Origin: Candidatus Poribacteria bacterium
GTDB taxonomy: Bacteria; Poribacteria; WGA-4E; WGA-3G
DNA: 64,000 nt
Reading direction: 5' to 3'
Assembly (NCBI GenBank): GCA_965242965.1
Contig: OZ251518.1
Location: 5,344,001 to 5,408,000 of the forward strand
In this document: one piece after another, positions 4,106 to 51,625 of the stretch
Position numbering within the stretch: the first letter of the stretch is position 1
Layout of the letters: every line of letters begins with the position of its first letter
The notes under the pieces: generated by a model
What the model saw: the letters and a program-made list of their open reading frames with translations, nothing else
Database searches by the model: none
Told to the model about the DNA's origin: nothing
Position numbers and translations under genes: made by a program

Positions 4106-4440
4106 GCCGGTAGGCGCGCCTTTAAAGCGCGCATACCGAATTCATTGAGGATATTTCATATCTCGATGGTATCCCGGTAGGAGAGACTTCCCGGTCTTGA
4201 CAAACACCGGTAGGAGAGACCTCCCGGTCTCGATGCAATATCGTAGGGGAGCCCTCCTGGTTTTGATGCCCACCGTATCGGGACAAGGATGTCCCTCCTA
4301 CCGTAAGGCATCGGACCCGCCTCTGTGGTTCGGGAGCTCCCGCTCCCGAACGGGTCAGGATCAGGCGATCCTGCCCTACAAGGGTGATGCGGTCTGACAG
4401 CCAAACGCATGGCGAGGGACAGGCCCTCGCCCTACGTAAA
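4106..4440. repeat. Cluster of GTAG-headed REP-like hairpins with a TIR-like end at 4147
   Basis: GTAGGCGCG..CGCGC, 2x GTAGGAGAGAC(C/T)TCCCGGTCT, GGGACAAGGATGTCCCTCCTAC, GGCGAGGGACAGGCCCTCGCCCTAC; GAGGATATTTCATAT at 4147. Confidence 0.85.
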
Positions 4441-8715: not shown

Positions 8716-9119
8716 CCTCGTAGGAGAGACCTCCCGGTCTCGATGCAATAGGGTGTCGCGCCTACCGGGGCCGCGGCGGCAGAAAAGCCCGCTTGAAAAA
8801 ACGTTTCTTAGGTCCGTAGGACCTTAATGTCTATAGCCCGCGCGCCCGCGAAGAGCTCTAAGGGCCTTTAGGTCCTTAATAGTTTTTACCATGGCCGCGC
8901 GTGTTTTTATTAAGGACCTAAAGGACTTTGACAACGGCACGACACGTTTTTCTATAGACATATAGGACCTAAAGGACCTAAAACGCCACTCTTGACGATG
9001 GAGATCACAGGGGACAGGCCTCCGCACTACGGGAAGAATCGAGACTAGGAGGTCTCTCCTACCGGAAATCGAGCCCCGAGGTCTCTCCTACCGAACACAT
9101 CGAAATATGAAACACCCTC
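8716..9119. mobile_element. Composite MITE-like repeat element (homologous to 51021-51625)
   Basis: Shares GTAGGAGAGACCTCCCGGTCTCGATGCAATAGGG...GCGGCGGCAGAAA, the AGGACCTA inverted-repeat module and the right end ATGAAACACCCTC with the 51 kb element. Confidence 0.75.
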
Positions 9120-16502: not shown

Positions 16503-18107
16503 ATGAGAACCTTTGGCATCCACGGCCGTGTCTACCCTGAAAAGCACTATGTCGTTGCGCGCGCCGAGGAGCTCGCCGATTTCATCCGCCGGGTTAAAGA
16601 TGGCAAATACATCGTGCTCTTCGCGCCTCGGCAAACCGGAAAAACGACGTTCTTCCGGTGGGCTTTAGAAGCGTTGGCGGCAAAAGACGAAACTTACTTC
16701 CCGGTGCATCTCAATTTTGAGGATTACAAAAATCTTGTTTCTCCTCCCGAATTTTATGCGGGACTTTACGAAGATCTGCGCATGGAAATTGAGAAGGTTT
16801 TTCAAAAGCGGGGCAGTGTGCCATCTGCGGCGTTAACGCAATTTCTGAATGCTACGCGGTTAACCAACCAGCAGGCAATGCGAAGGTTCTTTTGGCGACT
16901 GGCATCCTTTTTAACCCCGCAGCGGGTGGTGCTCATCATTGATGAGTTTGATGGGATTCCCGCCACTGTCGTGAACGATTTTCTGCATGCACTGCGGGCT
17001 ACCTACCTGTCCGATAATCTGGCGCGATGTCCCTATAGTGTCGGCATCGTCGGTGTAAAGAGTATCACGCAGCTCAACTATGACAAGACTGTTTCTCCGT
17101 TTAATGTGCAAGATGAGTTCCGGTTGCCGAATTTCACGCTGTCACAGGTGCAGGAACTCCTGGGGCAGTATACGGCGGAAGTCGGGCAAGCGTTCGCGCC
17201 GGCCGTCGTTGAGAATATCTACAAGCAAACAGCGGGACAACCGGTGCTAGTAAACCGCCTGGCGCAGCTCCTCACCGAGGAGATGGATATTCCCAAAACC
17301 GAGACGATTGGCATGGAGCACTTCGCCGTGGCGCATCGGCAGTTGCTGCGCGGGCGCAACACAAACATCCAACATCTCACGGCGAATATCCGCCGCGACC
17401 CGAGATTTGAAAGGCGGTTGATGCAAATCGCGTCTTATGATGAAGCGGTAGACTTCAACTTGGATGATGACATCATCAGTGAACTCGCCACCTACGGTGT
17501 CCTCGTGGAGGCCCCCAATGGTATGTGTGAGATAGCGAATCCGATTTATCTTTACCGCATTCTGCGCACGTTCCAGCCGGCGATGAACGGGGTAGAGAGC
17601 GACTACTACCCACAGGACATCGGCACTGGGTATCGCGATTACCTCACGGCGGCGGGGCAGATAGACATGGTGGGGCTGTTGGATAACTTCCGTGACTTCA
17701 TTGGGCGCGCCGGTTTCCGTATTCTTCAAGTGCCGGCGAAGCCGCGGGAATATGTTGGGCAGTATCTGCTGTTTGCTTATCTGGACCAGGTTGTGCGGCA
17801 GGTGCAAGGTGTCATGCATCTGGAGGTGCAGACAGGGCGCGGGCGCATCGATTTGATGATAAATCACCGCAACCGGAAATACATCGTAGAGACGAAGGTG
17901 TGGCAAGGCGAAAAGAGTTATCGCGCAGGGAAGGAACAACTCGCCGCATATCTGAAAGTTGAAGGCGCGGCGGCGGGATACTACGTCGTGTTCGATCATC
18001 GCGTTGTCCCAGAGCCGCGCGTGGAGACGGAAACACTAGAGGGTGTGACGATTCGTAGTTATGTCATCCCTGTTGTCCACGAACGCCCATCGGAAACGGG
18101 AACGTAA
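16503..18107 (+). CDS. AAA-type ATPase/PD-(D/E)XK protein, paralogue 2
   Basis: Same motifs; AGGAGG SD; near-identical to paralogue 1 from GIVGVKSITQ onwards. Confidence 0.85.
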   Translation: MRTFGIHGRVYPEKHYVVARAEELADFIRRVKDGKYIVLFAPRQTGKTTFFRWALEALAAKDETYFPVHLNFEDYKNLVSPPEFYAGLYEDLRMEIEKVFQKRGSVPSAALTQFLNATRLTNQQAMRRFFWRLASFLTPQRVVLIIDEFDGIPATVVNDFLHALRATYLSDNLARCPYSVGIVGVKSITQLNYDKTVSPFNVQDEFRLPNFTLSQVQELLGQYTAEVGQAFAPAVVENIYKQTAGQPVLVNRLAQLLTEEMDIPKTETIGMEHFAVAHRQLLRGRNTNIQHLTANIRRDPRFERRLMQIASYDEAVDFNLDDDIISELATYGVLVEAPNGMCEIANPIYLYRILRTFQPAMNGVESDYYPQDIGTGYRDYLTAAGQIDMVGLLDNFRDFIGRAGFRILQVPAKPREYVGQYLLFAYLDQVVRQVQGVMHLEVQTGRGRIDLMINHRNRKYIVETKVWQGEKSYRAGKEQLAAYLKVEGAAAGYYVVFDHRVVPEPRVETETLEGVTIRSYVIPVVHERPSETGT

Positions 18108-18263: not shown

Positions 18264-19496
18264 ATGTCCAAAACATTGGCCGTATCGGGCGGTACGCCTG
18301 TGCGGAATCTAGAAACGCATCCGTGGACTTCATGGCCCCTCAACACCGCCGAGGAGTGGGATGCTAAAATTGAGCCGCGGCTCCGGGAAGTCTATCTCAG
18401 CGGGAATGAAGGTTCTGGCGGCACGATGATTGACGCGTTCGGCGAGCAATATGCGTGCTATTCCGGCACCACCTACGCCATTTTCATGCCGCACGGCACC
18501 GATGCTATCAGTGCAGCCTTGGCCGGCGCGATGGATTTAGACGGCTTTAGCGATGGCGGTGAGGTTATCGTGCCGAACTATACCTTCGTTGCAACCGCGA
18601 GTGCTGTCTTGGAACGCCGATGCACCGTCGCTTTTGTCGACATTGACGCGGAGACATTCACTATTTCTGCGAGTGCCGTTGAGGCGGCACTCCAGCCGCA
18701 TACCCGCGCGATTTTGCCTGTCCACCTCGGCGGACACCCGGCAGATATGGGCGCGTTACGCGAGATTGCCCAACGCCACAATTTAGCAATCATTGAAGAT
18801 TGCGCGCAGGCACACGGCGCGGCATATCAGGGCAAAAAAGTCGGTTCACTCGGCGATGTCGGCGCGTTCAGCTTCCAATCCTCCAAAAACCTCACTTCCG
18901 GCGAAGGTGGCATGGTGACTACCGATGATAAAGACATCCGCGACCGCGTCTACGCCTTCATGAATGTCGGCCGTGCACCCGGCGGCGCGAGATGGGAATA
19001 CCCACGACTCGGATGGAATTACCGTCCCTCCGAATACCTCGCTGCCATCTTACAGGTGCGGTTGGAATTGCTGGAATCGCAGACTGATTTGCGCAACCAT
19101 AACGCCGCCTATTTGTCAGACGCGTTGGCGGCAATTTCTGGCATAACGCCGCCGAAACTGGCACCGTGGGTTACCAAGCACGGGTATCATCTCTACTGCC
19201 TCAAGTATGATGCGGAAGGGTTCGGGGGCAAGTCTCGCGCTGAATTTGTCAGGGCACTCTCCGCGGAAGGCGTGCCTTGCTCTATCGGATACCGTTCGCC
19301 GCTCTCACGGGAACCGGGCATGGCGCGCGTTGCAGAGAAATATCCGCATCTCATTCGCACATTGCCCTCGCCGAATACAGAGCGGGTTTGTGAACAGAGC
19401 GTGTGGTTTTTCCAAAACCTCTTTCTCGGTTCCGAGAGGGATATGGATGACATCGTTGCGGCAATCGCCAAAATTCAACGCGCATGGAATGCCTAA
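18264..19496 (+). CDS. DegT/DnrJ/EryC1/StrS PLP aminotransferase
   Basis: EVIVPNYTFVATA, EDCAQAHGA, FSFQSSKNLTSGEGG, GWNYR. Confidence 0.93.
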   Translation: MSKTLAVSGGTPVRNLETHPWTSWPLNTAEEWDAKIEPRLREVYLSGNEGSGGTMIDAFGEQYACYSGTTYAIFMPHGTDAISAALAGAMDLDGFSDGGEVIVPNYTFVATASAVLERRCTVAFVDIDAETFTISASAVEAALQPHTRAILPVHLGGHPADMGALREIAQRHNLAIIEDCAQAHGAAYQGKKVGSLGDVGAFSFQSSKNLTSGEGGMVTTDDKDIRDRVYAFMNVGRAPGGARWEYPRLGWNYRPSEYLAAILQVRLELLESQTDLRNHNAAYLSDALAAISGITPPKLAPWVTKHGYHLYCLKYDAEGFGGKSRAEFVRALSAEGVPCSIGYRSPLSREPGMARVAEKYPHLIRTLPSPNTERVCEQSVWFFQNLFLGSERDMDDIVAAIAKIQRAWNA

Positions 19497-19842
19497 ACCG
19501 CTCCTTGTTTACGATGGAGAGTGCGATTTTTGCCGATACTGCATTGCGCGATGGCGGCACGTTACCGAAGCGAGAATTCGCTACGCGCCTTACCAAGAAG
19601 TCGCCGCGCAGTTTCCGCAGATACCACTATCGGTGTTCCAGAATGCTGTCCAGTTGATTCTGCCTGATGGAACCGTGTTGAGTGGTGCGGCGGCCGTGTT
19701 TCACGCCTTCGGCAACCGACGTATCCTCTGGTGCTACGAAAATGTCCCCGGTTTCGCGCCGATGACGGAAGGAGTCTATCGCTTCGTTGCGCGGCATCGC
19801 GCCTTTTTCTCTAAAGTAACGCGCAAGTTTTGGAAAACATAA
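19489..19842 (+). CDS. DCC-family thiol-disulfide oxidoreductase (DUF393)
   Basis: MPKPLLVYDGECDFC...GAAAVF...YRFVARHR; start overlaps the aminotransferase stop. Confidence 0.85.
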   Translation: MPKPLLVYDGECDFCRYCIARWRHVTEARIRYAPYQEVAAQFPQIPLSVFQNAVQLILPDGTVLSGAAAVFHAFGNRRILWCYENVPGFAPMTEGVYRFVARHRAFFSKVTRKFWKT

Positions 19843-19844
19843 AT

Positions 19845-20079
19845 GAGGGTGTTTCATAAATTTATCCCTTGAGGGGAGGCGCATCGGGCCCACCACTGTA
19901 GTTCGGGATCGCCCGTGGGCGGGCGGTAAAACGGGTCAAGATCAGGCGATCTTGACCTACAGGCCTAGCGCGCGAGCGATGGCGAGGGACAGGCCCTCGC
20001 CCTACGTGAAGGGGCGGCGTTTTTTCACCGTAGCGCGGGGCCTGTCATCGCAACGTTGAGCGATTTATGAAACACCTTC
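19845..20079. mobile_element. MITE-like element: 16-bp TIRs, 8-bp target duplication, REP-hairpin cargo
   Basis: Left GAGGGTGTTTCATAAA, right TTTATGAAACACCTTC (15/16 inverted match), flanked by ACATAAAT at 19837-19844 and 20080-20087. Confidence 0.85.
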
Positions 20080-20154
20080 ACATAAATTCAAGAACGGAGA
20101 TATTCGGAACCACGGAGATATACCCTCTTGAACCAGAAACCCTTATCGAACGAC

Positions 20155-20931
20155 ATGCAAACAACAAAAAATCCATTTTTATCCGTCGCATTAGAAGCGG
20201 CGAGAAACGCCGAAGAAGTCATTACGTCTTACTACAACGGCGATGCGATGAACGTTCAACTGAAAGCAGATGAAACGCCTGTCACCCGCGCCGATACCGA
20301 AGCGGAACGGGTTATCCGCGAGACTATCAAGGCGGCATTCCCCGAGCACGGATTTTTAGGCGAGGAATTCGGCACCGAAAGAGGCTCATCGCCTTATTTG
20401 TGGATAATCGATCCGATTGATGGCACCAAGAATTACATCCGCAAAATCCCCATCTTCGCGACGCAGATTGCGTTGATGCAAGATGAGCGGCTCATCCTCG
20501 GCGTTTCTAATGCACCGTTGTTGAACGAGCTGCTATATGCGACAGCAGGCGGCGGTGCTTTTTTGAACGACGAACCGATAACCGTCTCGGACGTAGGCAA
20601 CCCTTCGGACGCGATGATTTGCCATGGTGGCCTGAAATGGTTCACGCCAAAGGGAGTTCTTCCCGGAATGTGTGAACTTATCAACGACACGGCGCGCTCA
20701 AGAGGCTTCGGTGATTTCTATATGTATCACCTCCTCGCTTCTGCTAGGGCAGATGTTGTCGTTGAAGCAGCGATAAGTATCTGGGACATCGCCGCGCTCA
20801 GCGTCATCGTGCGGGAGGCGGGCGGCAAGGTAACCGACATGCAGGGACGCGCTATTACAAAGGATACCGTGTCTATGGTTGCAACGAATGGGCGTTTGCA
20901 TGAGGCGGTGCTTCGTTATTTTCTACCATAA
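20155..20931 (+). CDS. Inositol monophosphatase family (histidinol-phosphatase HisN-like)
   Basis: ADETPVTRAD, GEEFG, WIIDPIDGTKN, RGFGDFY, WDIAAL. Confidence 0.88.
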   Translation: MQTTKNPFLSVALEAARNAEEVITSYYNGDAMNVQLKADETPVTRADTEAERVIRETIKAAFPEHGFLGEEFGTERGSSPYLWIIDPIDGTKNYIRKIPIFATQIALMQDERLILGVSNAPLLNELLYATAGGGAFLNDEPITVSDVGNPSDAMICHGGLKWFTPKGVLPGMCELINDTARSRGFGDFYMYHLLASARADVVVEAAISIWDIAALSVIVREAGGKVTDMQGRAITKDTVSMVATNGRLHEAVLRYFLP

Positions 20932-51020: not shown

Positions 51021-51625
51021 GAGACTGTTTCATAAATCCGTTTCGGCATTTATCCCCCCCGAATATCGAGTCCTCTTGGTAGGAGAGACCTCCCGGTCTC
51101 GATGCAATAGGGCGGGCCGCCTACCAGGGCTGCGGCGGCAGAAAGCCCCCTTCATCGTAGGGCTTGGGCCCTCGGATGCCACACGCGCATGCGAGCGGGT
51201 TTCCTTCGCCATCGTCTGCGCACTCCAACGCTCGCGGGGGACAGGCCCCCGCGCTACGGTGAAAAACGTCTCTCCTTTCTCTTCAGGTCCTTTAGGTCCT
51301 GCATGTCTATAGCACGCGCGCCCGCGAAGAGCCCTAAGGTCCTTTAGGTCCTTAATGGATTTTGCTGCGCTGCGTGTTTTCCTACTAAGGTCCTAACGGA
51401 CCTTGAAAACGGGCTGACACGTGTTCTATAGACATTAAGGACCTAACGGACCTAAAACGCCCCTCTTGGTGATGGCGATCGCGGGGGACGGGCCCCCGCG
51501 CTACGGAAAAATCGAGACCGGGAGGTCTCTCATACCTCTTTTGAGACTGGGAGGTCTCTCCTACGAGGGATAATCGAGACCAGGAGGTCTCTCCTACCGA
51601 ACGCATCGATTTATGAAACACCCTC
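51021..51625. mobile_element. MITE-like composite element with TIRs and REP cargo
   Basis: Left GAGACTGTTTCATAAATC, right GATTTATGAAACACCCTC; interior of GTAG hairpins and the AGGACCTA inverted-repeat module. Confidence 0.8.

Follow-up and report, generated by a model that had tools for sequence, protein, structure and literature searches.

The window, that is, the whole stretch of 64,000 nucleotides analysed here (contig OZ251518.1 of the Candidatus Poribacteria assembly GCA_965242965.1), holds at 19837-20087 a short sequence whose parts point to two kinds of mobile DNA. Its edges, inverted ends within a short direct repeat, are those expected of DDE transposition, whereas its interior consists mostly of GTAG hairpins, the repeats of HUH/RAYT systems. 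The question is which of these systems placed it there, and whether the hairpins travel with it or arrived afterwards. By far the best explanation, which we hold with considerable confidence, is that it is a non-autonomous MITE moved by a DDE enzyme of the type encoded by a parent insertion sequence, with REP doublets as its passengers.

The element is non-coding and occupies 19845-20079 (235 bp), and all coordinates of the original prediction were confirmed by sequence readout. It is flanked by two copies of ACATAAAT, at 19837-19844 and 20080-20087. The left terminal inverted repeat is GAGGGTGTTTCATAAAT (19845-19861, plus strand), its first 16 nt (19845-19860) being GAGGGTGTTTCATAAA. The right one is GAAGGTGTTTCATAAAT (20063-20079, minus strand), with one mismatch (G>A) to the left end, and positions 20064-20079 read GAAGGTGTTTCATAAA in reverse complement. 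The inverted ends are 17 nt long and complementary at 16 of 17 positions; in a repeat search they grow to 18 nt at 94% (19844-19861 and 20063-20080) when the adjoining T/A is counted, and the 8-nt direct repeat was also detected. As predicted, the insertion lies at the stop codon of a DCC gene: the upstream ORF (19207-19842) is DCC1-like (PF04134, 2.8e-9) and its TAA (19840-19842) is within the left copy of ACATAAAT. The downstream ORF (20128-20931) is of the inositol monophosphatase family (PF00459, 2.2e-56). Two copies of ACGGAGATAT, separated by 18 bp, follow the element on its downstream side (20094-20121), and in one sister species (G001, L004 about 1425-1535) there is a tandem duplication of ~55 nt in the leader of the homologous inositol monophosphatase gene.

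Inward from the left end there is a sub-terminal module, termed E (19862-19895, plus strand; end cluster 6, with 14 ends), followed by four GTAG hairpins. R4 (GTAGTTCGGGA..., 19898-19932, plus strand), the type that flanks the single RAYT gene of the genome, and R5 (19934-19960, minus strand), which has a perfect 10-bp stem (19934-19943 with 19948-19957, 100%), form a tail-to-tail inverted doublet. R2 (GTAGGGCGAGGGCCTGTCCCTCGCC, 19979-20005, minus strand), whose 14-mers are found at about 1,700 genome copies, and R1 (20030-20062, plus strand) form a head-to-head doublet. The spacer between them (20006-20029, plus strand) contains part of a terminator-like hairpin (19997-20017) followed by a T-run, CGTTTTTTCA, which is a pattern match only. 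The stem of R1 is partly decayed, and this segment includes the tail of the A module (end cluster 1, 217 ends), which abuts the end repeat. The GTAG heads are thus on the plus strand from 19898 and 20030 and on the minus strand ending at 19960 and 20005. All these interior units have the traits of GTAG-tagged REPs, namely the GTAG head, a short GC-rich palindrome and high copy number. Folded as single-stranded DNA, the element reaches -64.4 kcal/mol against a shuffle mean of -40.0 (z = -6.7), and none of 200 shuffles was as good. It has no ORF of at least 60 aa inside; a minus-strand ORF (19627-19896) merely overlaps its left edge. The predicted ACATAAAT-flanked element with inverted ends and an interior of GTAG hairpins was therefore seen in full, and the 235-bp stretch is a genuine miniature transposon with four hairpin passengers from another mobile family.

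The insertion is also documented by its unoccupied target, which the original prediction proposed to look for in relatives as a site with a single copy of the repeat. Contigs of four public runs (X1, X5, X12 and X14) were aligned to 19300-20600 of the window. In X1 and X5, which come from different sponge-metagenome studies, there is a joint 19836>20080 that skips 243 bases (235 + 8), with 8 ambiguous, and a second X5 contig has an equivalent joint 19839>20083, also with 243 bases skipped and 5 ambiguous. The two X5 contigs are 161 nt each, split 28+133 and 130+31 with nothing between the sides, and their summed depth at the joint is 308 against 302-308 in the flanks. For X1 the joint depth is 27.9 against 29-36 in the flanks, and the short side has 23 letters. 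Compared with the window, the flanks of the empty site show 6 differences in 258 positions and 8 in 533. The unoccupied form, with one ACATAAAT, is thus present in close strains, on contigs that are short, with a left side of 23-31 letters (31 in only one of them). No joint across the element was found in X12 and X14, where a contig extends past the right end into flanking sequence; we read these runs as the filled form, and they may be the source of the assembly. In both sister species the two flanking genes are adjacent and the element is absent, and the window sequence minus the element and one repeat copy is colinear with them. They were set aside as a precise empty site, since their flanks are 85-87% identical and the site itself has diverged.

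The element belongs to a large family. The window's own genome (5.70 Mb, 54% GC, 2 contigs, 94.7% complete) contains 875 copies of the end 16-mer with at most two mismatches, 227 of them exact, against one copy in the reversed genome. Adjacent ends no more than 3 kb apart form 248 convergent pairs with a median of 367 bp, and the other three orientations count 97, 47 and 40. Target duplications were predicted for other end pairs as well, and they are frequent: among the 248 convergent pairs, 52 have an exact duplication of 8 bp, 27 a match of 7/8 and 24 an exact one of 9 bp, whereas shuffled partners gave 0.15 exact and 2.95 at 7/8. An exact or near-exact duplication is present in only 103 of the 248 pairs, and solo ends number 379. 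With 84% A+T, the duplicated 8-mers conform to the logo A-n-T-T-A-A-n-T (A 43, T 45, T 42, A 47, A 37 and T 42 of 52), whose A...T symmetry can displace the apparent duplication boundary by one base. This AnTTAAnT signature is present outside all 875 ends, including the 379 solo ones, which indicates that solo ends are relics of true insertions. Past those 8 bases the flanks are ordinary, with 46-48% GC, and the landing sites are AT-rich unique spacer, not hairpin repeats. Promoter-like flanks were also sought, but TTGACA at -34/-33 in 14 of the 875 outer flanks and TATAAT at -11 in 9 of 875 are too weak for a promoter-seeking call. In the window's species alone, the burst of this family comprised no fewer than 400 insertions. 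The E-ended copy examined in sister species G001 (L031, G001:C102:13900-14600) has an imperfect flank repeat of 15 bp (13/15), GC-richer than the usual target, and not one of 8 bp.

Other members lie within the window, where the 16-mer with at most three mismatches has six matches against 0.68 expected, a number reached by none of 100 shuffles. Besides the two ends of the element these are at 9104-9119 (minus strand), 51021-51036 (plus strand) and 51610-51625 (minus strand), while the sixth, at 16793 with 3 mismatches, is probably due to chance. The region 51021-51625 (605 bp) belongs to the same superfamily as the 235-bp element, but its hairpins are assorted differently and its flanks show no clean duplication. 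The match at 9104-9119 stands alone as the right end of a truncated element, with an interior homologous to that of 51021-51625. A degenerate solo left end is present at 4147-4162 (plus strand), with the usual sub-terminal module next to it, and represents a related element without a right end. Its 4 mismatches, counted by eye, exceed the limit of three, so it is absent from the match list. The recurrences of the same ends around other hairpin assortments, predicted at 4147, 9104-9119, 51021 and 51608-51625, are consequently real.

A source for the ends was found outside the genus. The end 14-mer was searched in 41 genomes, comprising the window's own and 40 relatives, and was counted 530 times in the window's genome, 5 times and once in the sister species and 14 times in G022, a genome of another genus. 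Those 14 matches are 7 pairs, each of 1107 bp. The first copy read (L023) has ends identical to the 17 nt of the element and AGATAATT on both flanks. Duplications at the seven copies are of 8 bp in four, 9 bp in two and 7/8 in one, the same mixture as in the miniature elements, and the 235-bp element carries an 8/8 duplication, the length made by this parent insertion sequence. Five of the seven copies are identical base for base, and the other two are oppositely oriented. Each encodes a transposase of 332 aa, 100% identical in 7/7, which matches DDE_Tnp_1_3 (PF13612, 8.3e-10, 39.3 bits, cut-off 27) and DDE_Tnp_1 (PF01609, 5e-6, 26.9 bits, cut-off 23). The best curated family for this protein is IS982 (NF033520), but the score of 55.2 bits is below the curated cut-off of 130, and membership of IS982 was rejected. 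The residues D, D and E are invariant across 10 homologues with 34-100% protein identity. Of the 10 homologous copies, 8 have recognisable GAGGG(G)TG..CATAA ends and 5, as read by eye from their flanks, an exact duplication of 8 bp; conservation of the ends and of 8-bp duplications extends to copies of only 44% identity. Homologues of the transposase are present in 66 of 176 Poribacteria genomes searched and in none of the 3 of the window's genus. The few NCBI records that carry a source name call them only 'hypothetical protein [Candidatus Poribacteria bacterium]'. The 1107-bp element thus answers the expectation of an autonomous insertion sequence with the same ends, in a related genus, and its DDE transposase and 8-9-bp duplications agree with the prediction that inverted ends plus a duplication mean DDE transposition.

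According to the explanation that we favour, the MITE would have been moved by cut-or-copy-and-paste DDE transposition, with the enzyme supplied by this insertion sequence family of ~1.1 kb, which occurs across Poribacteria and has the same 17-nt ends. The copies in a different genus suggest that a parent-type enzyme acted in trans. The cuts of this enzyme, staggered by 8 bp or sometimes 9, would fall at AT-rich AnTTAAnT sites, and the target used here would have overlapped the DCC1-like stop codon, the left repeat copy still supplying the stop. The interior would be a captured cluster, two inverted doublets of GTAG REPs belonging to a separate HUH/RAYT system that was already spreading in the genus. 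The hairpins would be passengers, neither needed for transposition nor dependent on it, and the 17-nt ends alone would define the transposing unit. Deletion, hairpin duplication and end re-pairing may have diversified the family, the assembled genome may since have lost the transposase gene, and its copies are probably immobile at present.

The window's genome itself, in which no intact transposase of this type was found, counts against this explanation, as do the end pairs that lack a duplication, the solo ends, the average age of the copies, the 15-bp flank repeat in G001 and the shortness of the empty-site contigs. Pfam searches with PF01609, PF00872, PF01610, PF12762, PF13612, PF00665 and PF13358 gave no match in it. 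By eye, no transposase-like ORF was found in the listed 21 convergent pairs of at least 750 bp, which have ordinary genes inside. In a self-megablast for long repeats, the 80 of 346 matches that were inspected, of 85-93% identity, look like paralogous gene families, with no recognisable insertion sequence among them. Remnants of the parent are limited to six left-end stubs of 129-137 nt (70-75% identity) and one locus with two short protein matches to the transposase, weak and broken. No autonomous partner was therefore found in the same genome, as represented by this assembly of 2 contigs and 94.7% completeness. End cluster 10 (7 copies) was considered as an ORF start and rejected, being a non-coding stub (~150 nt) with homology to the insertion sequence at its left end.

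An insertion absent from strains that are ~2% diverged is hard to reconcile with a long-lost enzyme. This difficulty would be removed if the two systems were coupled, the DDE unit seeding REP doublets at AT-rich gene ends for local amplification by the RAYT, and the transposase acting in trans from Poribacteria that share the sponge. With the enzyme coming from outside, an insertion younger than the ~2% divergence of the strains would be explained although this species encodes none. About a quarter of the REPs are found within 400 bp inward of an end (2,470 of the 9,222 hairpins counted below), as would fit such seeding, but we regard this coupling as unlikely, if the least unlikely of the alternatives.

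The end modules of the family all diverge just inside nucleotide 17-18, and they include C (261 ends), A (217), B (127), A2 (47), D (29), F (15) and E (14), plus others. The pair types comprise A-B (46 pairs, 36 of them of 255-306 bp), A-C (36), C-C (33) and A-E (7, of 227-256 bp); the 235-bp element of the window is of the A-E type. Among the A-module tails, 265 of 407 are followed by the end repeat. The A-B consensus has 266 bp and the order end, R1(-), R2(+), R5(+), R4(-), B module, end. The A-B copies have a median identity of 88% to it (range 76-98%) and are accordingly old on average. Comparison by eye suggests that the E module is a shortened B end, that is, B minus its outer stem. An alignment of all 11 E-ended pairs shows that 10 of them, though located at unrelated loci with different flanks, agree in the four hairpins, their order and their spacing. 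Compensatory changes occur in the stems of these copies, R4 having AGC...GCT or ATC...GAT and R5 having AGG...CCT or AAG...CTT. The hairpin cassette is inherited with the element. The window copy has a peculiarity of its own, in that the 3' arm of R4 (19910-19932) is replaced or extended by about 8 bases and the stem is broken; this is unique among the 11 aligned copies, the other 10 being intact.

The original prediction also considered a preferred landing pad. In such a reading, an originally REP-free deletion derivative of the insertion sequence would attract REPs, and the hairpins would arrive after each landing. The common point at which all modules diverge would fit this, and so would two kinds of additions. 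Longer A-B variants (328-729 bp) hold extra or duplicated hairpin segments, and a palindromic insert of ~29-38 nt lies exactly in the R2 or R1 loop in 4 of the 11 E-ended copies (G000:C1:3354599-3354854, 5533852-5534107, 90059-90316 and 3630970-3631231). REP-level change therefore occurs inside the elements too. However, an identical layout of four hairpins in nearly all E-ended copies at different loci points to inheritance and not to repeated landing, and the hairpin density is lower inside the elements (10.6 per kb) than in the 1,620 repeat islands that touch no pair (19.7 per kb). A preference for the element as landing site finds no support in these densities, and arrival of the hairpins after each landing is an unlikely explanation, slightly more so than the coupling of the two systems. 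The A2 end type (47 ends) is defined by the sequence of this loop insert, which is a third tier of nesting.

Passenger REPs captured by a DDE-moved unit should be distinguished from a system in which the unit is their obligatory vehicle. With a rule of GTAG followed by a stem of at least 7 with at most 1 mismatch, 9,222 REP hairpins were counted in the window's genome. There are grounds for linking them with the ends: 228 of the 232 intact end pairs of up to 800 bp contain at least one GTAG hairpin, typically 3-5, the share of hairpins near ends is that given above, and R4 (20%) and R5 (28%) are the types most enriched within pairs. The prediction accordingly proposed a two-tier arrangement, with a DDE-moved shuttle that spreads REP cassettes; in its obligatory form the shuttle is the main vehicle and REP abundance depends on it. 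Yet only 950 of the 9,222 hairpins (about 10%) are inside the intact pairs. Within the genus, the exact R2 20-mer has 1,506 copies in the window's genome and 327 and 95 in the two sisters, against 5 and 1 end 14-mers in the latter, and it has 0 matches in the other 38 genomes searched, which include G022 with its seven copies of the insertion sequence. These two sets of counts indicate that the REPs are older, genus-specific and able to multiply without these ends. They also suggest that the insertion sequence arrived without REPs and that its ends captured a local REP cluster, pre-existing REPs being the ones taken up. The sister-species counts already suggest that strain-polymorphic REP insertions are mostly outside end-bounded units. 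The REPs are thus independent of the shuttle, this part of the prediction found no support in the form given, and dependence of REP abundance on it is very unlikely.

The REPs have, moreover, a candidate enzyme of their own. There is a single RAYT in the window's genome (P0122; NF047646, 120.3 bits against a cut-off of 80; C1, about 3147500-3148000), a gene that the prediction proposed to look for, and its presence is a further point against the obligatory vehicle. It is flanked by 8 R4 repeats, with no R1, R2 or R3 there. Only R4-type repeats are found at the RAYT although at least five REP types are abundant in the genome. Another Y1 match was rejected as a second RAYT, being an IS605-type remnant (L001, G000:C1:3123891-3127127), in which a 408-aa TnpB-like ORF lies beside a Y1/tnpA fragment interrupted by two TGA codons. 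Movement of the whole unit by an HUH (RAYT) enzyme, the inverted ends and flank repeats being incidental, is scarcely credible, for the interior does contain R4, the type found at the RAYT, but HUH single-strand transposition makes no target duplication, the 8-9-bp duplications are 350-fold above control, and the same ends bound a REP-free DDE insertion sequence.

The DDE-moved MITE with passenger REPs can be compared with known systems. NEMIS/Correia, RUP, Nezha and ERIC are described as bacterial MITEs derived from insertion sequences in the part of Di Nocera et al. 2013 (PMC3733652) covered here, and MITEAba12 is another example (PMC6382973). Like these, the present elements are small, non-coding, intergenic and present in many copies, with a target duplication and ends shared with an insertion sequence. 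Unlike them, they have only the 17-nt ends in common with the parent, their body consists of GTAG REP doublets of another mobile system, at least 8 sub-terminal modules are interchangeable, and ~875 ends are found in a genome without an intact parent. As in the REP/BIME/REPIN and RAYT systems, to the extent covered in Nunvar 2010 (PMC2817692) and Bertels and Rainey 2011 (PMC3116915), there are a GTAG head with a GC-rich hairpin, inverted doublets and a single RAYT flanked by its own repeats. What sets the whole unit apart from REPs is the presence of inverted ends and of an 8-bp duplication, and the REP count of 9,222 by the hairpin rule greatly exceeds the 'more than 100 copies per genome' given in PMC2817692. 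The parent resembles IS982 and the wider IS4/IS5 (DDE_Tnp_1) clan in its length of ~1.1 kb and its single DDE transposase of ~330 aa, and differs from IS982 in ends that begin GAGGG, in the AnTTAAnT target with a duplication of 8-9 bp and in its sub-cut-off score. In the literature as covered, which includes parts of PMC3184786 and PMC3733652, supplements apart, neither DDE-type MITEs composed of REPs nor any REPs or MITEs of Poribacteria were found described.

Taken singly, MITEs, REP/RAYT systems and DDE insertion sequences are known, and what is unusual here is their nesting and the copy number without a matching enzyme. New results are the identification of a parent insertion sequence, the motif of the target, a precise empty site, the division into subfamilies and the counts by which REP spread can be told apart from MITE spread. 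A DDE transposon nested with an HUH/RAYT system, in hundreds of copies, with a defined target and strain-variable insertions, is a natural test case in which travel of REPs by hitch-hiking can be measured against travel by their own enzyme. In addition, ends, target and duplication length are now defined for an unnamed insertion sequence family that is widespread in Poribacteria, and a large MITE burst is evident in a genome that lacks the transposase.

In mobile insertion cassettes such as MIC231, two ends of insertion-sequence type move whatever lies between them. The 235-bp element differs from these in having no gene, but a unit of 2,902 bp in the window's genome (G000:C1:54311-57212; L059 212-3113) is comparable to them. 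It has an A end and a D end, with an exact 8-bp duplication, ATTTAAGT. Inside it lies an ORF of 588 aa that combines ankyrin repeats with a dockerin domain and an HELGH motif. The unit looks like a gene cassette mobilised by MITE ends and illustrates the re-pairing of ends, the gene carried by these same ends being of the host-interaction (ankyrin-repeat) type.
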